From Alphaproteobacteria bacterium (GTDB lineage Bacteria; Pseudomonadota; Alphaproteobacteria; RF32; CAG-239), in contig JAFUTN010000044.1 of NCBI GenBank assembly GCA_017484225.1, forward strand, positions 4,802 through 68,801: DNA of 64,000 nucleotides, in the 5' to 3' direction. Made by a program: the position numbers and the translations under genes. Below, piece after piece: positions 2,115 through 61,867 of the stretch (positions within the stretch are counted from its first letter, which is position 1; every line of letters begins with the position of its first letter). Under the pieces are notes generated by a model. That model made no database searches and was not told the DNA's origin. It saw only the letters and a list, made by a program, of their open reading frames with translations.

Positions 2115-3794
2115 ATGGCCGCATACCAATATATATTTGTAATGCAAAATCTGACCAAAGTTCTGCCGGGGGGACGTGAACTGTTCAAAAACATTACTTT
2201 GTCTTTTTTGCCGGGAGCAAAAATCGGAGTTTTGGGAGTCAACGGCGCCGGAAAGTCTACACTGCTGAAAATCATGGCCGGCGTTGATAAAGATTATAAC
2301 GGCGAAGCTTGGGCTGCCGATGGCGTTAAAATCGGTTATTTGGAACAAGAACCACAGTTAGATCCGAATAAAAACGTTATGGAAAACGTTATGGACGGAC
2401 TTGGTGAAATTAAAGATTTGTTACAAAGATTTGAGGAAGTTTCCGCAAAATTTGCCGAACCGATGAGTGACGAGGAAATGAATGCTCTCATAGAAGAACA
2501 AGCTGACTTGCAAGAAAAAATTGATGCTTGCAACGGTTGGGATTTTGAGCGCACAATTCAAATAGCAATGGATGCTTTGCGCTGTCCACCGGCTGATGCC
2601 GACGTAACAAAGCTTTCCGGCGGCGAAAAACGAAGAGTTGCCCTTTGCCGCTTATTATTGCAAAAACCGGATATGTTGTTGTTGGATGAACCTACAAACC
2701 ATTTGGATGCTGAATCCGTGGCATGGCTGGAACGCCATTTACGTGAATATAACGGCACAGTGGTGATGGTAACTCACGACAGATATTTTCTTGATAATGT
2801 AACCGGATGGATTTTGGAACTTGACCGCGGTCAAGGTATCCCTTATGAAGGAAATTACACTTCTTGGTTGGAACAAAAAGAAAAACGACTTGCCCAAGAA
2901 GCCAGAGAAGAAAACTCACGTCAACGCACATTGGCTCTTGAATTAGAGTGGATTCATAAAAATCCTAAAGCTCGTCAGGCAAAATCAAAAGCACGTATTA
3001 ATGCTTATGATGAATTGCTGTCACAAGCAGCAAAAGAAAAAATCACCACGGCTCATATAAATATTCCGATGACCGAACGTTTGGGCGATTTGGTAATTGA
3101 AGCCAATCATATCAGCAAAGCCTTCGGAGACAAAGTTTTGATTGATGATTTATCATTCAAGATTCCCAAAGGTGCTATTGTCGGTATTATCGGTCCGAAC
3201 GGAGCCGGAAAAACAACTTTGTTTAAAATGATTACCGGACAGGAAAAACCGGATTCAGGCGAAATCAGAATCGGTGACACCGTTGATTTGGGATACGTTG
3301 ATCAATCTCGCGACGAACTCAGTGCCGACAAAAATGTTTGGGAAGAAATTTCTGACGGCTTGGATATGATTTGGCTCGGTAAAAACGAAGTATCTTCACG
3401 CTCTTATGTGGGACAATTTAATTTTAAGGGGGCGGACCAACAGAAAAAGGTCGGCAACCTTTCCGGCGGTGAACGCAATCGCGTTCACTTGGCAAAAATG
3501 CTCAGAAAAGGTGCTAATGTCATTTTGCTTGACGAGCCGACCAATGACTTGGATGTTGATACTTTGCGCTCACTGGAAGAAGGTATCATCAATTATCCGG
3601 GGTGCGTTTTGGTTACATCACATGACCGTTGGTTTTTAGACCGTTTAGCAACACATATCTTAGCTTATGAAGACAACGGACATGTTGAATGGTTTGAAGG
3701 TAACTTTGAAGAATACGAAAAGGATAAAAAAGCCCGCTTGGGTGAAGATGCCTGCAATCCGCACCGCATTAAATACAAAAAATTAACCAACTAA
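2115..3794 (+). CDS. ettA: Energy-dependent translational throttle protein EttA (ABC-F ATPase)
   Basis: Two ABC cassettes with Walker [10 protein letters not shown] and GPNGAGKTT, signature LSGGEKRRV and LSGGERNRV. Family-typical N-terminus MAAYQYIF and an inter-domain arm/linker. 559 aa. Confidence 0.9.
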
Positions 3795-53204: not shown

Positions 53205-54560
53205 ATGATTAATAAAAAACTTATATTGGCTGTTTCGTTCGGATTGATTACATCTGCCAACGTTCATGCCGAATCAATTTTTGAAGCCATGACCGAGGCT
53301 TACAACACGAATCCTGTATTGCAGGGACAACGGGCAACCAGCGGTATTGCAAATGAAGATGCAGCATTAGCTCGTTCCGGTTTCAGACCGGTGATAAGTG
53401 CAAATTCCAGTTACACGGATTCGCACACTCATACCAAACCTAACCCTACAAATGACGGCTACGGTAAGGGGTATAATGCTCAGGTTTCTCAATCGTTGTT
53501 CAGCGGTTTGCAAACTTACAATGCCGTGAGAGCTGCCGACCAAGCCGCAAAAGCCGGTATTCAGACTTTGTATGAAACAGAACAAAATGTTTTGCTGAAT
53601 GCCTCAAAAGCCTATTTAGATGTTTTACGCGACGAAGCTATTGTTAAGTTGCAAAAAAACAATGAAAAATTACTAAAAAAACAATTAGATGAAACACTTG
53701 CCCGTTTTGATGTCGGTGAAGTTACCAGAACTGACGTGGCTCAATCAAGAGCAAGTTACGCCCAAGCACAATCTGATTTGATTTCTGCCGAAGGCAACTT
53801 GGAAATATCTAAAGCAAACTATTTGCATTATGTCGGCAGCCAACCTGACGATTTGAAAACACCGGAAGGTTTGCAAAAATTTTTCCCTGTTCAATATGCC
53901 GAAGCTTTGCAATATGCCAAAAATAACAATCATGCTCTTAAAGCAGCCCAAAAAAATGCCAGAGCAGCAAAATATGATGTGAGAAGCAAAACAGGCGCAC
54001 TGTTACCGGAAGTATCGTTTAATGCCAGAACCGGTAAAAATGAAGCTTCCAACCATCTCGGCAAAAATATTAATACAACTGATACGGAATACACCGTTAA
54101 TATGAGTGTTCCACTCTATGCCGGCGGTGCTACTCGCGCCAAAATACGCCAAAGCAAGTATAAAAAATGGGCAGCCAAAGAAAACCTAAAAGAAACAGAG
54201 CGCGCCGTTGAAGCCGGAGTTACCGGTTCTTGGGAGGCTATGCAAACCAGTCGTTCCAACATAAAATCCATTCAAGAGCAAGTAAAAGCTTCGGCCATTG
54301 CTTTGGAAGGAACGCAAAAAGAAGAGGCTTTAGGTAATCGCACTGTCTTAGATGTATTAAATGCTTATCAAGCTTTACTGTTATCTCAGGTTACCGAAGT
54401 AGAAGCTCAGCATGACTACTACCTTTCAGGTTTACAACTTCTGCAGGTTATGGGTAAACTCACCGCTAAAGATATGCATTTAAATGTCAGCTATTACAAC
54501 CCTGAGGAACATTTTGAAAATACCAAAGGTAAATGGTTGACTCTGGATATTGATGACTAA
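53205..54560 (+). CDS. TolC-family outer-membrane efflux protein
   Basis: Signal peptide, then two TolC/OEP repeats (…LEEALQYAKNNNHALKAAQ…). 451 aa. Followed by a terminator at 54591-54622. Confidence 0.75.
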   Translation: MINKKLILAVSFGLITSANVHAESIFEAMTEAYNTNPVLQGQRATSGIANEDAALARSGFRPVISANSSYTDSHTHTKPNPTNDGYGKGYNAQVSQSLFSGLQTYNAVRAADQAAKAGIQTLYETEQNVLLNASKAYLDVLRDEAIVKLQKNNEKLLKKQLDETLARFDVGEVTRTDVAQSRASYAQAQSDLISAEGNLEISKANYLHYVGSQPDDLKTPEGLQKFFPVQYAEALQYAKNNNHALKAAQKNARAAKYDVRSKTGALLPEVSFNARTGKNEASNHLGKNINTTDTEYTVNMSVPLYAGGATRAKIRQSKYKKWAAKENLKETERAVEAGVTGSWEAMQTSRSNIKSIQEQVKASAIALEGTQKEEALGNRTVLDVLNAYQALLLSQVTEVEAQHDYYLSGLQLLQVMGKLTAKDMHLNVSYYNPEEHFENTKGKWLTLDIDD

Positions 54561-54691
54561 GCTGATATTTTCGCAGATTTTTATTACACAAATAATCCTC
54601 AACTGTTTGAGGATTATTTTGTTAATGAAAACTCTTTACAAAAGACTATATATTTTATAAAATAGTTGCAGAATGTAAAAAATACATTTTA

Positions 54692-54872
54692 GGGCGTGAG
54701 AACCCTTTTACTTCATCAGTCGCATTGATTTGCGACTCAAAATGTGTACCGAGTTCGCTCGTAAATTAGAGCGGATGTCGGTGTTATAAGGCTTTTGAGC
54801 GCGAAAACGCCGAGCCGTTTGATGAAGTACGGTTTCTCAACATCCGCCCACCGTTTTAGGTGGCTTTTTTAT
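54692..54872 (+). ncRNA. Candidate ~180-nt structured sRNA (6S-like closing stem plus intrinsic terminator)
   Basis: The 5' segment gggcgtgagaacccttttacttcatc (54692-54718) is almost perfectly complementary to the 3' segment gatgaagtacggtttctcaacatccgccc (54820-54849). Internal hairpin gtcgcattgatttgcgac. Terminator ccaccgttttaggtggctttttt. Upstream promoter-like TTTACA-17-TAAAAT at 54644-54672. No ORF. Confidence 0.45.
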
Positions 54873-54893
54873 TAACTTTTTAATAATGAAAGG

Positions 54894-55616
54894 ATGTTTG
54901 GAATGAAGTATTCTGCATTTATTTTTTGTTTTATCGGTGCCGGTGCTGCCTTTGCCGAAACATGGAATTGCGGACCGGCAACTGACGGGGTATACAGTGA
55001 CAGCGTTAAATGCACGTATGATGAAGCAAGTAAAACTTTAACCATTTCCGGTGAAGGAAAAATGGGGAATTATCATTATGTACAGGTTGACGGAGAATCT
55101 GCAACCGACACACCATGGCTAAGAAAAGATATTGTCCACGCCGTTGTGGAAAAAGGGGTTACCACAATCGGGGATAGAGTATTTAAGGCATTATACAATT
55201 TGGAAGATGTCACCGGATTGGAAAATATTGAATCAGTAGGGAATTTTGCTTTTGGTTATGATGGAAAATTAACAAGTATAGATATTCCGAATGCACAAAA
55301 TATCGGTCAGGGTGCGTTTGCAGATACTGTTTCTTTAATGTATGCAGGGTTCTCGGAAAGTGTTGATTTTGCTACCGAACCGCATCTTCCATTTAGAGCT
55401 TCACGGCTTTCTAAATGTGCTTCTCATGGAGAATGCGGAAATTGCGGAGAAAAATTCGTGCAAGCGGGAGTTGGTTGTGTAAATGATTGCTATGTCGGAT
55501 ATTATCCGACAAATCAAGGATACTGCAAAATAATTAAACTCCGTTACACCCTGCCGGAAGCAGACGCGGCAACGAGTAATGACAACGAAAATATGATTGA
55601 ATGGATATTTGAATAA
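54894..55616 (+). CDS. Secreted leucine-rich-repeat (BspA-like) plus Cys-rich protein sharing a C-terminal tag with 574..1218
   Basis: Signal peptide, then LRR_5/BspA-like repeats (...VTTIGDRVFKALYNLEDVTGLENIESVGNFAFGYDGKLTSIDIPNAQNIGQGAFADT...), then Cys-rich CxxC units. The C-terminus KIIKLRYTLPEADAATSNDNENMIEWIFE is nearly identical to that of the 574..1218 protein. Confidence 0.6.
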   Translation: MFGMKYSAFIFCFIGAGAAFAETWNCGPATDGVYSDSVKCTYDEASKTLTISGEGKMGNYHYVQVDGESATDTPWLRKDIVHAVVEKGVTTIGDRVFKALYNLEDVTGLENIESVGNFAFGYDGKLTSIDIPNAQNIGQGAFADTVSLMYAGFSESVDFATEPHLPFRASRLSKCASHGECGNCGEKFVQAGVGCVNDCYVGYYPTNQGYCKIIKLRYTLPEADAATSNDNENMIEWIFE

Positions 55617-55693
55617 CCATTGTCGGCTGATTATACAGTTTCTAAATTAGGCATGGCTAAAACCACTTAAAATTTTAGCCATGAAATTTTTAA

Positions 55694-58600
55694 CTAAAAA
55701 CGGTATTTAGCGCCAACGGTTCCGGTGTGTTCGGTATATTTACCGCGCCAGTTACCGATATATGTCATGTTGATGTCAAATTTTTCATTCATCTTGATAT
55801 TCAGTCCCAAATTACCTTCTAAGCTGAATTTATCGGTATTTGAGGTAACAAACGTATAGCTTCTGCCGTTTTTAAGCTGAATAACCGATTTTTCGTCATC
55901 AGATTTCATATCATAACCGACACCGAGATATGCCTCCGGACGCACAATAGCGGAATCCCCTACTCTGTAACTTTTATTCATCCGCAAGCCGGCAAGTCCG
56001 GTAACCACTTTCATATCGGCAGAATCTACATGCTGAGTCGTATCGTCCGTGTATGCGTCACGAGAAATACTGGTTACGCGCGCTCCGAACTCCGGAATAT
56101 AATTTATGTAGTGACCGATAAATTCATAACCGGTTTTAAATTGAACCGACGAATACTTAACATCATACTTAGCTTTGAATTTTTTACCCAAAGCTTTTTT
56201 ATCTTCTTCGTATTCGGACATGCTGTATGATGCCATCAAATTAGCAAACCAATGATTTGGTTTCACTTCACCGTAAACAAATCCGGTGTGAGTGGTAATA
56301 TCTGTATCACGGGAACTATTTTCCGCCGTTGACAAATCAAAGGCATAGCCGACGCCTACTCTTACGGACTCACCTAAATTGGTATCGGCACCGATTGCCA
56401 TACCTTTAGCATCCAAATCAAAACCGCTTATGGCACCGTCATCATCATAATTTCCCTTAGAAAAGTAAGCTTTTGCCCATGTTGTGCTGTATTTGAGCGA
56501 ATTATCTCCGGATGATACGCCGTAATATCTTGTGCCGTAAGAATCCTGATAGCTGTCGTAAGTATTGTTGTATTGATAATAACCGCTGTTCATATATCTG
56601 CCGAACATGGAGCGATTACGCTGAATAACACGATTGTTGCGCAAGTGAGAGCCTATCATATTAAACAAACGGTCACTGTTGGTTATGGCAGCGGTTTTCA
56701 CTATCGGTGCTTCGGACGGAGCAATGGCTGCCAACGCCTCATTGAGTTTTTTGCCGTCATTTTGAGCCAATTCAAACAAACCGTCGGCAATACTTTGTCC
56801 GACCGTTCCATCATCAAACGGCGACAAATCAACCCAGTTGCGCGCAGTTAAAGCGTTATCTTCCGTTCCGCCGTTTTCACGGGAAACCTCTTCAGCCGTT
56901 TTGTAGTATTGAATGATATAAACACCTTCTTCACCGGCCTTTTTGCTGATTTTATACATATTATTGCTTACAACATCCGTGAAATTGTTAACAAAATCAT
57001 CATTACCGGCCGAAAGCAAACGAACTTCAACCGAAGGTTTGCCGCCCAATAATCCCGTTCCGAGTGTTGCTTTCAACACAGCCCCCTCGTTAACCACCAT
57101 ATTATCGGCAACAACCAATCCATGTCTGCCATCTGTTACGGCGCGGATTTTTAAATCCAAAACCGAACCGGAATTAAACACAACACTGTTCAAATTAACG
57201 GTATTTGTTCCGATTGTTAAGCTTCCTCCGGTTGCATACAAAGAATCGGTTGTTCCGAATGTTGCGGAAGCATCATCTGCTTTCAAGTTACCGCTGTTAA
57301 GATTAATTCGGTTGTCGGTTATTGAATTTTTCAGCGTAACATCTCCGGCAATATTTATGATTCCGTTATCACCGTTAATGCCGTCTGCCAAAACAATCTT
57401 GTTACCGTTTGTCGTGCTAAAATTAAGTATTCCGGCATTATAAATTGCATTAGCTGCCTCATTAACCATATTTCCTTCAAAGCTTACATCTCTGTCATCA
57501 GCCATAACATTAACCGTTCCTTTATTGTATATTGCACCTCCGGAACCGGTTGCATTATTGTCATATAAGTTAACATTGGTTAAATTAACCTTGGCGGAAC
57601 TGTTGACTACTTTAATGGCGGAGCCGTCAATACCGGAAGCATTTTTTATGTCAACGTTTGAAATGTTAAGTGTTGATATGTTATTCAAAACAAAACCGCT
57701 ATGTGCATTCATATTAATGCTTGATGCTTTATCGGCAGACGAGCTCAGCACGCCTCTCACATTAAATGTGTCTGTTGATGAACTGCCGAGATTGTCTTCA
57801 ACCTTATATATGTTGTTATAGCGATTGAAATAAAATTCTTTTTCTGCTCCCAGATTTGCCTGATTTACTAAGGCTAACGTGTCACCTTGATAGCCGATAA
57901 ATGTTTTTTCTCCCGGAGTAAGTGAGGTAACTTTCAAAACAATACTGTCATTTGCCGTATCTTTGGTTCCTATTTCCAATATTCCGTTCACACCGAATTT
58001 TTGATTATAAACAGCATACTTGTCGTTCCATGCCGTAGAAATTTTTATTGCATCACTTACTTCTTTTTCGGTTAACCCTACCTGTTTTTCAACCGAAGTT
58101 TGTTCTCGCAACTCGTCCGTCATACTTAATTGTAACGCATTGTTATTATTTGCATTATTCAATACTTTAATCTTGTATGTATCCCCGACATCTGCATCAG
58201 CAATAAATTCGGAATCGCTATTCAATATATTCAGCTTATTAAGCAGAACCGTTCCGTTGGAAGCAGTGCCTGTTGATGTTCCGTAATCATCTGTTGTGGT
58301 AAATGTATCTGATTGCAAAGTAACATAATTAATGTCAATTTCATATTTTGCAACATCTGTTCCGATATTGGAAAACAGTGACTTAAACGCATTATCCCGA
58401 GTGGTGTTATCCAAGGTATTAACGGTTAAAGTTCCGGAACTTCCGCCGCCAAAAGTAACAATGGCATCTTTCATTTCTCCTGCAAGCAAAAATGTTCCGG
58501 TTGAACCGTCCGTAATTCCGACATTAACGGCATAATTATTTGTTCCGTTAATAACATCATCAAGTTCAAATACACCGGCTTTGGATAAACCGATATTCAA

Positions 58601-61600
58601 ATTACTTCCGTCCATATAAACCGCACTGTTGCCGGAATTATCTTTAATTACTGATGTGTAACCGACGTCTGTTGTTTCTCCGCTATCCGGATCGGTAACC
58701 GTTGTGCCGGTAACATACAAATTCACATCCTTATCGGCATAAATTGCACTGCCCTCTTCATCTGCTCTGGCAGACGAATTGCCTTTGAAATCAACATTCG
58801 TAAAATTTTGAATTGAATTTGCATCGGCAAATGTAAATGTATTCACGCCGTTGGTGAAAAGAACGTTATTGATATCATATTCCGCACCGTCTCCGGAAAC
58901 AAAACCGGTGTATTGGTTCAAATCAATCGTTGATTTTGTTCCGCCGGAATTACTCTTTCCGTTGATTACAAATTTTCCGGCACCGGTTGTTCCCATATAG
59001 TTTTGTCCCGCCAAATCGGAAACATATTCCGTCTCTTCCACAACAATTTTATCATTATTAACCACTTTTACATTGTTAAATGAGCCAAAATCAAAACTGC
59101 GGGAAGAAAATCCGGCGGCAGTTCCGTTCAATCTGTTAACCATTACGAGATTGTCACCCAAACCGGCTTCAATATCTTTACTGTATGTAGTCGGACCTTC
59201 CGTAATCACAAGACTGTCGTTTGTTGTATCTTTGGTAGCAAGTTTAACCGTGCCGTTAACGATTTCCGTCATTTTTCCGCGGGTATAATTTTCAGCCCAA
59301 TTTGTTTCAGATTCAACACTATCGGTATACGGCGCGCCGATTATTGAGCTAACCGGAAACAACAATCCCTCTACCGGACTACCGTCTTCTTCTTCCAAAC
59401 GAAGCTGAATATTGTCTTTATTGTTCATATTTTTAACGATTTGCAGCTTTTTCCCGCTTTCTTTCAAGCTGTTATAAGCATCAACACTAAAATCGGTAAA
59501 ATTAATTTTGCTCAAAGTAATATACTGTCCGGCATCCGCACTTTGGGCAACAATTCTGTCCCACCAATAAGTGCTTCCGGAGGTTTCTGCCGCCGAATTA
59601 CCCAGTGATAAATCTATTTCGTAACGAGCATTTTCGGTTGATGTAAACTGCCGGTATCCTTCCGGAATTGTTCCGTCTCCGCCGGAAAACTTGTATTCGG
59701 TATACATTCCGGATATTCCGTCATAGGAAACAGCATTTCCAAGCATACTGACGGTTATTTTATCAATATTTATTTCCCCTTGATTAAGTCTGGCATCTGA
59801 GGCACTTGCATAGTCCCATTTTATTTGGCTGTTCAGGTGGAATTTTTCCGTTTTTGCATCATTTCCACTTATTATGACTTTATATCCGTTAACACCGGAA
59901 ATACCTTGATTTAAATATATTTCTCCGCCGTTAACGGCATTAAATGTCACATTAACATCTGAAATTCCGACATATCCGGCAGCATCAGATCCTTCTGTCC
60001 CTGTTTGCCCGATTACAATACCGAAAGCACTGTTGCCAGCACTTCCAATCACAGTTGAAGCAACTACACCTTCAACATCATCATCTGTTGTAATATCTCC
60101 TAAATCAGTGCCATCGGCAACAATTTTAAAATCTGTTTTAGACTGTATGGCGTATCCCGATGTCGGAAGCAACCTGACATTTGTAAACGTTATGGTTTTA
60201 TCGCCGCTTTTTTTGGTTGTTTTGAAATCAAACAAATTGCTTGCATTTTGAAAAGCAACATTTTTAACGGTAAATGTATCGGCAAACGTTTCACGATAGC
60301 TACCGGTTTGTGAATTTTTATCAATATAAAATCCTCCGGCACCGTTGATTGTTGACAAGAAAATATTGCCGGAAGAATCTTTTCCCCATTTACCTTCAAT
60401 ATCAAATGACGTTCCGTGAATCGGAAGCTGACCGTAATATAAACCTCCGAAGATATCATATCTTGCTTTGCTTGAATTATACGCATAAACCTCATCTGCA
60501 TTTTGCGAAATAAAACTTCTGCTGACAGGAGCACCGCTGTCTGAATATGTGCAACTTGAAAGATTGCAAGTGACATTAGGAGACAGTGTTGTTGCCACCC
60601 ACAATGCATCAGCGGTTTTATCTCCCTTATCTTCTCTATCTTCAACTTTCTTTTCTAATTTATAAACACCGTTATCACCTTGCTTCAGATACGAAACTTT
60701 GCTTAAATATATTTTCTTTTTTATTGCCGACTCATAACCGAGTTCTCTTTGGGTATATTCAGCCGTATCCGGATCATAATCACTCATCCATGTAATTGTG
60801 TTATCAACATTTTCAAGTTCAACGCTGCCGCCTACCTGCTGTTCATAACTATTCCATCCTCCTTCTCCGGAAGCTGTCCAGCTTCCGCCTCCGGTTTTCA
60901 GGATAGTCCACTGCCAAGACCCGCTTTCGTCAACCGACGGAGTATCAAAAGAAAAGTGACTTGAATCAAATTTTCCGTTAAATATTCCGGTTTGTATAAC
61001 ATCACTACTGCCGGTAGAAAGTGCTGACATATAAAACCTTCCGTCACCCAGTGTCAAATCTCCGAATTTATACACACCATCCCTGTTGTCATATCTTGTA
61101 TCAAAATACACATAAGAACCGACGTTGATGTTGGAATCGGTAATTCCCACATCATTACTTGAACTTTCATTGTATAAATAAAACCTTCTGCTGCCACTTG
61201 AAGATGTAATATTTGTCGTCGTTGCACCGGTTATCAAATCATGAAGATGAACGTCCCTCGTCAAATTAATATTGAGAGTTCCGCCGTTCATATAAACAGC
61301 TTCATTTTTTCCGTTTGCCGTATTATGATTACCGGAATTTCCTATCTTCAATTCATTTGTAACATTAAGAGTTAAATTACCTCCGTCCATATAAACGGCA
61401 CCGCCGTGACCGCTGGCACTATTGCCGGTGATATTGGAAGCTCCGGTTATCGTCACATCTTTAGTGCTGTATATCGCGCCGCCGTTAGTGCCTGCACTGT
61501 TACCGGTAATATCACCGCCTATCGTTATTGCCGAGCCGGTATTATAAATTGCGCCACCGCTACCGTCATTTGTCTTGTTGTTTGTTAAACTGCCTATGGT

Positions 61601-61867
61601 TCCGCTAACCGTTCCTTCATTAAGAATTGCACCGCCGTTTTTGTTGGATGCATCATCTGCCGGAGATAATCCGGAAAAAGACTTTCCGTCCAGATTTGCA
61701 TCATTTCCGCTTTCAACCACACAACGACTGTTTCCGTCACAGGTAATTGTTTCGGCCAATACCGGAGATACGACAAAAAACAGTCCGGTATTAATCAAAA
61801 AACACTTTTTCAAAACACTGCGATACTGTGCATTCAAAAAACCAAGGGCAGATTTGGTGTAGCGCAT
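55694..61867 (-). CDS. Type Va autotransporter, 2057 aa (beta-helical passenger plus C-terminal beta-barrel)
   Basis: Extended signal peptide (MRYTKSALGFLNAQYRSVLKKCFLINTGLFFVVSPVLA). Gly/Thr/Asn/Ser-rich passenger with GGAIY-type pectate-lyase-like repeats (GGAIYN, GGAIYSTKDV, HGGAVYMDGG). The C-terminal ~280 aa show an alternating-hydrophobic beta-barrel pattern and end in ...GAKYRF (terminal Phe). Confidence 0.8.
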   Translation of the reverse strand: MRYTKSALGFLNAQYRSVLKKCFLINTGLFFVVSPVLAETITCDGNSRCVVESGNDANLDGKSFSGLSPADDASNKNGGAILNEGTVSGTIGSLTNNKTNDGSGGAIYNTGSAITIGGDITGNSAGTNGGAIYSTKDVTITGASNITGNSASGHGGAVYMDGGNLTLNVTNELKIGNSGNHNTANGKNEAVYMNGGTLNINLTRDVHLHDLITGATTTNITSSSGSRRFYLYNESSSNDVGITDSNINVGSYVYFDTRYDNRDGVYKFGDLTLGDGRFYMSALSTGSSDVIQTGIFNGKFDSSHFSFDTPSVDESGSWQWTILKTGGGSWTASGEGGWNSYEQQVGGSVELENVDNTITWMSDYDPDTAEYTQRELGYESAIKKKIYLSKVSYLKQGDNGVYKLEKKVEDREDKGDKTADALWVATTLSPNVTCNLSSCTYSDSGAPVSRSFISQNADEVYAYNSSKARYDIFGGLYYGQLPIHGTSFDIEGKWGKDSSGNIFLSTINGAGGFYIDKNSQTGSYRETFADTFTVKNVAFQNASNLFDFKTTKKSGDKTITFTNVRLLPTSGYAIQSKTDFKIVADGTDLGDITTDDDVEGVVASTVIGSAGNSAFGIVIGQTGTEGSDAAGYVGISDVNVTFNAVNGGEIYLNQGISGVNGYKVIISGNDAKTEKFHLNSQIKWDYASASDARLNQGEINIDKITVSMLGNAVSYDGISGMYTEYKFSGGDGTIPEGYRQFTSTENARYEIDLSLGNSAAETSGSTYWWDRIVAQSADAGQYITLSKINFTDFSVDAYNSLKESGKKLQIVKNMNNKDNIQLRLEEEDGSPVEGLLFPVSSIIGAPYTDSVESETNWAENYTRGKMTEIVNGTVKLATKDTTNDSLVITEGPTTYSKDIEAGLGDNLVMVNRLNGTAAGFSSRSFDFGSFNNVKVVNNDKIVVEETEYVSDLAGQNYMGTTGAGKFVINGKSNSGGTKSTIDLNQYTGFVSGDGAEYDINNVLFTNGVNTFTFADANSIQNFTNVDFKGNSSARADEEGSAIYADKDVNLYVTGTTVTDPDSGETTDVGYTSVIKDNSGNSAVYMDGSNLNIGLSKAGVFELDDVINGTNNYAVNVGITDGSTGTFLLAGEMKDAIVTFGGGSSGTLTVNTLDNTTRDNAFKSLFSNIGTDVAKYEIDINYVTLQSDTFTTTDDYGTSTGTASNGTVLLNKLNILNSDSEFIADADVGDTYKIKVLNNANNNNALQLSMTDELREQTSVEKQVGLTEKEVSDAIKISTAWNDKYAVYNQKFGVNGILEIGTKDTANDSIVLKVTSLTPGEKTFIGYQGDTLALVNQANLGAEKEFYFNRYNNIYKVEDNLGSSSTDTFNVRGVLSSSADKASSINMNAHSGFVLNNISTLNISNVDIKNASGIDGSAIKVVNSSAKVNLTNVNLYDNNATGSGGAIYNKGTVNVMADDRDVSFEGNMVNEAANAIYNAGILNFSTTNGNKIVLADGINGDNGIINIAGDVTLKNSITDNRINLNSGNLKADDASATFGTTDSLYATGGSLTIGTNTVNLNSVVFNSGSVLDLKIRAVTDGRHGLVVADNMVVNEGAVLKATLGTGLLGGKPSVEVRLLSAGNDDFVNNFTDVVSNNMYKISKKAGEEGVYIIQYYKTAEEVSRENGGTEDNALTARNWVDLSPFDDGTVGQSIADGLFELAQNDGKKLNEALAAIAPSEAPIVKTAAITNSDRLFNMIGSHLRNNRVIQRNRSMFGRYMNSGYYQYNNTYDSYQDSYGTRYYGVSSGDNSLKYSTTWAKAYFSKGNYDDDGAISGFDLDAKGMAIGADTNLGESVRVGVGYAFDLSTAENSSRDTDITTHTGFVYGEVKPNHWFANLMASYSMSEYEEDKKALGKKFKAKYDVKYSSVQFKTGYEFIGHYINYIPEFGARVTSISRDAYTDDTTQHVDSADMKVVTGLAGLRMNKSYRVGDSAIVRPEAYLGVGYDMKSDDEKSVIQLKNGRSYTFVTSNTDKFSLEGNLGLNIKMNEKFDINMTYIGNWRGKYTEHTGTVGAKYRF

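Follow-up and report, generated by a model that had tools for sequence, protein, structure and literature searches.

A multi-copy family of structured leader RNAs, probably cis-regulatory, before envelope-protein genes of gut Alphaproteobacteria

Which described RNAs come closest to a structured leader that stands before genes for surface proteins? Some riboswitches that terminate transcription stand in many copies before genes for surface proteins or motility; the c-di-GMP-I and c-di-GMP-II RNAs are examples. The C4 RNAs of P1 and P7, the CI RNA of P4 and IsrK (RF01695, RF01394), an architecture for whose comparison P1 immI is part of the basis, are structured RNAs embedded between complementary sequences, with a terminator that yields a short and a read-through isoform and with control of a downstream ribosome-binding site (RBS). 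The seqA-CI-seqC arrangement of P4 and the short and long isoforms of IsrK are described examples (PMC4825925). Finally, sRNA-Xcc1 (RF02221) is a stable 88-nt RNA (PMC2996969) of Xanthomonas campestris that is also found in integron cassettes, prophages and islands. In Xanthomonas integron cassettes it precedes symE, in the APSE phage it precedes an ORF6N gene, and in a Xylella island it is tandemly repeated. Here we describe an element at positions 54668-54870 on the forward strand of a 64,000-nucleotide stretch of Alphaproteobacteria DNA (contig JAFUTN010000044.1; the whole stretch is called the window). It lies between tolC and a gene for a secreted BspA-type leucine-rich repeat (LRR) protein, and it combines a promoter-like site, a very stable fold and an intrinsic terminator. 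We read it as the cis-regulatory 5' leader of the LRR gene and as one member of a multi-copy family in gut Alphaproteobacteria, a reading to which we assign a probability of roughly 70%.

The element belongs to a large family. Two independent pattern scans returned about 190 distinct copies from gut Alphaproteobacteria metagenome-assembled genomes (MAGs) and from metagenomes. An 18-base pattern taken from the 3' element matched at least 110 stretches in GTDB species representatives, nearly all of them in MAGs of gut Alphaproteobacteria from humans and ruminants, and a second pattern that specified the central blocks only matched at least 120 metagenome stretches. Because this central-block scan recovered the 3' pattern unprompted, the conservation of the 3' end is not an ascertainment artefact: the full 3' pattern is present exactly in 69 of the 87 distinct sequences matched, the other genuine copies differ from it by one or two bases, about five of the 87 are unrelated coding DNA, and AACAUCCG is kept in all genuine copies. 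A covariance model built from 63 hand-annotated seeds, which replaced an analysis by MAFFT and RNAalifold of 111 untrimmed copies that gave a poor structure, gives full-length copies sense-strand scores of 71-161 bits, versus at most 35 bits for the antisense strand. The window copy scores 128 bits and is the only one in the window. Many assemblies carry several copies, and one of them, CAVGVF01, holds at least 10 matches on nine contigs. The family is absent from Rfam 15 and no prior description of it was found in the literature, so that it is apparently undescribed.

What connects these copies to the genes that follow them? An open reading frame (ORF) with a Shine-Dalgarno (SD) sequence lies on the same strand, 40-59 nt after CCGCCC, in 178 of the 199 copies with a called ORF. 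The downstream ORFs form 36 unrelated clusters, mostly of envelope proteins: autotransporters (52 copies), type-IV-pilin-like proteins (42), lipoproteins of several families (24 and 13 in the two largest), LRR_5 proteins (7), outer-membrane beta-barrels (5), an EcoRI-like methylase (4), and glycosyltransferases of the GT2 and GT8 families (3 copies each). The heptamer GGATGTT, the exact complement of the conserved AACATCC of the 3' element, occurs in 40% of the leader-linked initiation regions versus 2.9% of control sites, and the predicted duplex with the 3' element has −12.2 kcal/mol for the initiation regions versus −8.5 for the controls. In the window copy this complementarity is present as well (Table 1).

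The copies also resemble each other in how they are laid out, and each can be read as a unit that opens with a promoter and a 5' hairpin, continues with a structured core of about 160 nt and closes with an intrinsic terminator, followed by an RBS. Among 150 distinct copies, 109 have their best −35/−10 match ending 20-29 nt before AGGG (27 nt in the window). In 141 of the 150 the 5' hairpin reaches to within 0-1 nt of AGGG; its sequence differs from copy to copy and its loop is often GAGA, AAUA or GAUA. A terminator is found in 146 of the 150 copies, and 141 of these terminators have a 5' arm that begins within the conserved AUCCGCCC. The first-pass annotation of this locus had already noted a promoter-like site, an intrinsic terminator and the lack of an ORF in the intergenic region, and in all three it was right: the promoter-like site and the terminator lie where it had put them, and no ORF of 30 or more codons lies inside 54661-54871.

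Is it the RNA that is under selection? The 193-nt RNA of the window is predicted to fold with −71.4 kcal/mol, as compared with −47.7 ± 4.5 for 200 dinucleotide shuffles (z = −5.3; 0 of 200 as good). The reverse strand folds nearly as stably, and strandedness was therefore settled from the relatives. In the model alignment of 91 distinct sequences, on which all pair counts are based, 94.6-96% of helix cells are standard pairs, versus 36-47% in controls with a slid partner, and 0 of 500 shuffles reach the observed covariation, which is unusually clear. G.U pairs in the helices number 308 and A.C mismatches 25, a 12-fold excess that indicates selection on the RNA of the sense strand and not on a DNA palindrome. 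The first-pass annotation had proposed a structured RNA of about 180 nt with its own promoter and terminator, closed by long-range pairing, and had allowed that the complementarity might be a palindrome of this strain. The structured RNA, of about 180-200 nt, is conserved and is no strain-specific palindrome. Likewise, the long-range pairing is real: about 90 distinct relatives keep it through compensatory changes, and so it lies far beyond chance.

The covarying helices define a pseudoknotted multi-branch domain that has three inner hairpins, and the minimum free energy (MFE) fold agrees. One of the helices is a variable long-range stem, in the window a perfect 10-nt complementarity between UACUUCAUCA and UGAUGAAGUA. 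Relatives carry compensated versions of this stem, for example uacuucauca/ugaugaagua, aaaucuaauuaa/uuaguuagauuu and aaaauaaacg/aacguuuauuuu; all seven of its modelled pairs change on both sides and 94-97% of its cells are paired. Similarly, the UGAGAA in the loop of the local hairpin S1 is a perfect 6-nt complement of UUCUCA in the 3' strand. This loop-to-3'-strand helix has the general form U-NNN-AAA/UUU-N'N'N'-A, with double-sided changes at the three variable positions (C:G 66, A:U 14 and G:C 11 at the first; G:C 48 and A:U 39 at the second; A:U 45, G:C 32 and C:G 8 at the third). S1 itself has the form N-GGG/CCC-N', and its closing pair is A:U in 71 sequences, C:G in 5, U:A in 5 and G:C in 2. 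The covariation of this local hairpin bears on the long closing stem of the first-pass annotation. The inner pairings of that stem stand, while its outermost part, GGGCG/CGCCC, has to be corrected: double-sided changes are absent there, a few rare variants break the pairing, and the local S1 hairpin is the better-supported partner of these bases.

A further feature of the core is a central strand, GRCGGAUGUCGGY, with two partners. The outer part of helix P3, GCCGA:UCGGC, joins this strand to an upstream partner and has double-sided changes. Helix P4a joins the same UCGGC to a GCCGA downstream; 99.8% of its cells are paired and five of its five pairs change on both sides. P3 and P4a are mutually exclusive, and both covary with the shared strand. 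When this strand changes, which is rare (UCAGC, UCGAC), the change is always compensated in P4a and mostly compensated in P3. The parts of the window copy are listed in Table 1.

Table 1. Parts of the leader transcription unit in the window copy and their basis
Feature	Position	Strand	Basis or remark
Promoter-like site, sigma-70 type, TTTACA-17-TAAAAT	54635-54663	+	sequence match
P0, 5'-terminal hairpin, AGAAUGUA-AAAAA-UACAUUUU	54670-54690	+	MFE fold; abuts the core directly
S1, local hairpin A-GGG/CCC-U	54691-54706	+	covariation; 98.3% paired
S1 loop CGUGAGAA, holding UGAGAA	54697-54702 (UGAGAA)	+	covariation; 5' strand of the pseudoknot/long-range helix
var, 5' strand of the variable long-range stem (UACUUCAUCA)	54709-54718	+	complementarity, covariation; partner 54820-54829
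P2, hairpin GUCGCA-UUGAUU-UGCGAC	54719-54736	+	6 of 6 pairs change on both sides; 97% paired
P3 5' strand, ACCGA-GUUCGCUC	54748-54760	+	two helices, 98.9% and 90.6% paired; G:C, G:U and A:U variation
Switch strand GAGCGGAUGUCGGUG	54769-54783	+	partner either 54748-54760 (P3), or 54808-54813 (P4a) plus 54841-54846 (CGGAUG:CAUCCG)
P4 region: conserved AUAAGG, small apical hairpin, P4a strand CGCCGA, invariant GAGCCGU	54784-54818	+	conservation, covariation; aligns to hairpin 1 of the sRNA-Xcc1 model
var', 3' strand of the variable long-range stem (UGAUGAAGUA)	54820-54829	+	complementarity, covariation
Conserved 3' element ACGGUUUCUCAACAUCCGCCC	54829-54849	+	conservation, covariation; UUCUCA (54834-54839) pairs with the S1 loop, CAUCCG complements CGGAUG of the switch strand, AACAUCC (54839-54845) complements the downstream SD region, CCC opens the terminator arm
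Intrinsic terminator CCACC-GUUUUA-GGUGG plus U-run	54848-54870	+	sequence
Initiation region of the LRR gene: SD AAAGGA; GGAUGUU at 54892-54898, complementary to AACAUCC; start ATG 54903	54889-54905	+	sequence, gene callers
Gene for the secreted BspA-type LRR protein with Cys-rich C-terminus	54903-55616	+	237-aa product per gene callers

How might such a leader work? We read it as an attenuator or riboswitch-like switch, and we propose that its conserved 3' strand could choose among three partners, namely CGGAUG of the central strand, the 3' arm of the terminator and the downstream SD region. In an OFF state the central strand would pair with the upstream strand to give P3, whose 5' strand would thus act as an anti-antiterminator; with P3 formed, AACAUCCGCCC of the 3' strand would be free and the terminator would form. 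In any read-through transcript, AACAUCC could in addition mask the GGAUGUU of the SD region. In an ON state the central strand would pair with the downstream GCCGA (P4a) and with CAUCCG, giving a three-helix fold like that of sRNA-Xcc1. The 5' arm of the terminator and the anti-SD sequence would both be sequestered, which would permit read-through and translation. The P3 state is the MFE structure of the window RNA, at −75.8 kcal/mol.

Several observations weigh against this proposal. Enforcing CGGAUG:CAUCCG costs 13.5 kcal/mol relative to the MFE structure (with the pseudoknot ignored), and because the ON state is less stable by this amount it would need a cofactor or kinetic control. In the ON fold the GCCGU:ACGGU hairpin and the variable long-range stem are mutually exclusive. 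The CGGAUG:CAUCCG helix and GCCGU:ACGGU are both invariant, and since they never vary, covariation is neutral on them, neither supporting nor refuting either. In about 12 of 211 copies no ORF was called, and some copies are tandem or degenerate. Finally, the switching between P3 and the Xcc1-like fold is proposed from sequence alone.

If the leader is a switch, the factor that tips the balance would be common to all copies. The trigger that we favour, tentatively and at less than even odds, is a small ligand such as a second messenger, in which case the leader would be a riboswitch. The many copies per genome and the regulon of envelope genes suggest a global signal, and the leader has two generic features of riboswitches: a covarying domain in the 5' untranslated region before functionally related genes, and a terminator and an SD region that compete with a strand of a conserved helix. 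The leader resembles riboswitches of the c-di-GMP-I/II type in several respects, including an aptamer-sized covarying fold, a pseudoknot, a terminator that shares nucleotides with a strand of a conserved helix, and numerous copies per genome, which precede genes that are related in function without being homologous. Unlike these riboswitches, the leader has its alternative pairings inside the conserved core and not only in the expression platform, and no riboswitch model matches it at E≤10. Other candidate triggers are a protein, or the short isoform that ends at the leader's terminator and would then act in trans. A tblastn search for CsrA, Hfq and ProQ over 1.8 Mb found none of them, and is uninformative given that only about 8 kb per locus was sampled.

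Rfam 15 was scanned at gathering thresholds over the 64-kb window and at E≤10 over the 451-nt region 54500-54950. In the latter region no model of a riboswitch, 6S RNA, tmRNA, RNase P RNA or signal recognition particle (SRP) RNA matched, and the only notable match was to sRNA-Xcc1, with 28.8 bits at 54769-54857 against a gathering score of 53. The fourteen other leader copies in which the 3' domain was available score 26.3-41.4 bits with the same model; sRNA-Xcc1 is always the best family, and the match always covers model positions 1-87. In each copy tested, the 3' 85-90 nt align to the whole model, including the closing stem GGRCGGAUG/CAUCCGCCC, the first hairpin with its AAUA...GAAUAA internal-loop sequences, the second hairpin GCCGU...ACGGU, the U-rich joining strand and the CC-rich 3' tail. 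Of the helices that make up the Xcc1 fold, the hairpin 1 stem (P4a) covaries in the leader and the other two, the closing stem and the second hairpin, never vary; the competing P3 covaries too. As in the described examples before symE and ORF6N genes, the leader lies directly upstream of a protein gene. However, its scores fall below the gathering threshold, and by the Rfam criterion it is not a member of the family. Unlike sRNA-Xcc1, the leader has an additional 5' domain of about 75 nt (S1, the variable strand, P2 and the P3 5' strand), which pairs with the loop and the joining strand of the Xcc1-like part, as well as a separate terminator, and it occurs in many chromosomal copies before envelope genes of gut Alphaproteobacteria and not in integrons or phage. 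We class it as a leader that probably controls a terminator and an SD region and is distantly related to sRNA-Xcc1.

This kinship opens another reading, which we consider unlikely though by some distance the strongest of the competitors: the leader might be self-antisense in the manner of phage C4, P4 CI and IsrK. The short isoform, or a processed RNA of about 85 nt, would act in trans by pairing through UUUNNNAACAUCC with the initiation regions or with 5' decoys of its own and sister copies, and the regulon would be set by how much short RNA there is relative to long RNA, and not by a metabolite. The full-length match to RF02221 in the window and in 14 of 14 other copies (26-41 bits) fits such a view, as do the stability of the 88-nt sRNA-Xcc1 (PMC2996969) and its position upstream of symE or ORF6N genes. 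So does a weak match to C4 (RF01695) in two of 15 loci, at 22.4-23.6 bits versus a gathering score of 45, none being in the window region. The antisense-like domain of the leader has complements both upstream (the S1 loop and the variable strand) and downstream (GGAUGUU at the RBS), a layout that parallels seqA-CI-seqC of P4 and the two isoforms of IsrK (PMC4825925), with the isoforms and the RBS control being predicted on the side of the leader. The similarity to these models is weak, however, with every score under its gathering threshold (53 and 45 bits), and the neighbours of the leader are chromosomal. No copy was found in the viral contigs of IMG/VR, and a phage origin was accordingly dropped. 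The genes concerned encode surface proteins and not antirepressors. Since thresholds are not reached and the context is chromosomal, we speak of a likeness to C4, CI and IsrK and not of membership. A copy-specific match between the variable stem and the downstream gene would also be expected to speak for antisense action, and none emerged: the window stem shares AUGAAGUA with the start of its own gene, but own and permuted pairings give no different signal, so that we take this sharing to be a coincidence. Nor do the three variable positions of the 3' strand have an evident complement in the initiation regions that were compared, where inspection by eye revealed no covariation and only GAACAUCC/GGAUGUUC are shared. 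Processing and action in trans are themselves hypothetical.

The remaining explanations are progressively weaker. That the element is an independent trans-acting sRNA gene of about 200 nt, a relative of sRNA-Xcc1 lying upstream of genes by chance, we hold to be quite improbable. In its favour are a promoter of its own, a terminator that looks efficient, the existence of orphan and tandem copies, and the annotation in Rfam of the closest family as an sRNA; but the spacing of 40-59 nt to a same-strand ORF in 178 of 199 copies, before 36 unrelated families, the overlap of the terminator with a conserved strand and the match of the anti-SD sequence to the downstream SD would all be unnecessary for a free-standing sRNA. 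A repeat that acts at the DNA level, either a mobile element resembling a miniature inverted-repeat transposable element (MITE) or an invertible promoter with inverted repeats, could account for the copy number, the terminal inverted complementarity, the promoter and the recurrent breakpoints inside the 3' element of four metagenome contigs. We nevertheless reject an inverton or MITE, as the inner segment has the same orientation to flanks and gene in every aligned copy and G.U pairs far exceed A.C (308 versus 25). The stems, moreover, vary in sequence and length while pairing is kept, and a DNA-level repeat is very improbable. Least of all do we credit 6S RNA (SsrS) or another single-copy housekeeping RNA, which is what the first-pass annotation had suggested on the basis of the long closing stem and the terminator. 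These features were correctly spotted and the class was wrong. A length of about 180 nt and a long terminal helix are indeed shared with 6S RNA, and nothing else is: RF00013 matches neither at its gathering threshold in the window nor at E≤10 in the smaller region, and both the MFE fold and the fold supported by covariation are branched and pseudoknotted where a 6S RNA would be a rod with a central bubble. At least 10 copies in a single assembly, and absence from the syntenic position in relatives, argue against any single-copy housekeeping RNA. The earlier statement that signatures of tmRNA, RNase P and SRP RNA are lacking agrees with the scans above, and the covariation in relatives that it had called for is present in the helices. 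Thus we retain the cis-regulatory leader as the preferred reading.

The genomic setting shows no link to tolC. Three relatives whose TolC is 70-76% identical lack the element: downstream of tolC they have a gap of only about 70-90 nt and then other, unrelated genes. The element is therefore not a tolC-linked housekeeping gene, and tolC synteny was dropped as an anchor for finding relatives. The same leader lies upstream of homologous BspA-type LRR genes, both paralogues and orthologues, in differing neighbourhoods, for example after ispA-like, CCA-adding-enzyme, ribosomal-protein and other genes. In the window, the leader and the LRR gene are followed by a convergent autotransporter gene (55694-61867, reverse strand; 2057 aa), which has no leader of its own. 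The whole block 54561-61867 is absent after tolC in the relatives L006, L008 and L009, and looks like a variable surface-protein island. Directly 3' of the tolC stop, an inverted repeat at 54578-54631 has 25-nt arms that are 84% complementary and a loop of 4 nt; it probably serves as the terminator of tolC and is distinct from the leader. Transcription of the leader itself would start near 54670, judging by the promoter-like site. For the LRR gene, the mechanical ORF begins at ATG 54894 (240 aa), within the SD/GGAUGUU motif, and the start at ATG 54903 (237 aa, signal peptide MKYSAFIFCF...) is favoured by the gene callers and by its spacing from AAAGGA. The only family that reaches its gathering score anywhere in the window is a tRNA gene at 44713-44786 (RF00005, 59 bits).

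We also note some variation within the family. The P2 loop of the main subclass (GCAUA, or GUGCAC in others) is complementary to UAUGC/GUGC just 5' of GCCGA, as in L034:5409-5563, which might allow one more pairing, either tertiary or alternative; the subclass of the window (UAUACCGA) lacks it. Tandem copies about 270 nt apart occur at L199:155-301 and 426-572, L131:517-664 and 788-934, and L226:3173-3320 and 3445-3592, with a promoter-like sequence and no ORF between the copies. The first copy of L199 is degenerate, its 5' loop and variable strand mismatching their own 3' strand, and a lipoprotein gene follows only the second copy. Two metagenome contigs, L185:2230-2500(−) and L205:4105-4375(−), are normal through GAACAUCCG and then continue into unrelated DNA; two others, L168:1303-1577(−) and L229:7548-7822(+), do so after GGUUUCUGA. 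Identical breakpoints within the 3' element thus recur in independent contigs, and may mark an insertion or recombination site or assembly chimeras. The paralogous LRR_5 gene of L013 (P0161) has a longer, different leader (1195-1470) that has only GUCAGA...UUUCUGAAC-UCUCCG and the terminator in common with the family and is missed by the covariance model at E≤0.01; it may represent a sister class. Lastly, leaders before the same gene families are carried by CAVGVF01 (L020, L030, L034, L042, L053, L056, L068, L078 and L082), CAVKTH01 (L023 and L031) and CAVBCV01 (L033), whose titles name Eubacteriales, Bacteroidaceae and Lachnospiraceae; these bins are probably mislabelled or contaminated.

What would the leader family mean for its hosts? 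Gut Alphaproteobacteria of this type are common in humans and ruminants and are uncultured, and we know of no work on how their surface structures are regulated. One highly conserved leader that stands, in each genome, before dozens of genes for adhesins, pilins and lipoproteins would allow a regulon to be defined by sequence alone, and would offer a concrete handle on the signal, be it a ligand or a trans-acting RNA. It is possible, though we would not bet on it, that these leaders form an undescribed class of regulatory RNA, through which uncultured gut Alphaproteobacteria control a large share of what they display at the cell surface, with autotransporters, pilin-like proteins, lipoproteins, LRR proteins and glycosyltransferases among the products. 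Such a class could be a new riboswitch that senses a global signal, or else a descendant of the phage antisense fold of C4, CI and sRNA-Xcc1 that has become chromosomal and regulon-wide and works in cis and in trans. The leaders also provide a natural case of two mutually exclusive helices that both covary. Finally, the orphan Rfam family sRNA-Xcc1 is now linked to a cis-regulatory architecture and, if the above is true, sRNA-Xcc1 may itself be a cis-acting leader domain and not a classical sRNA.
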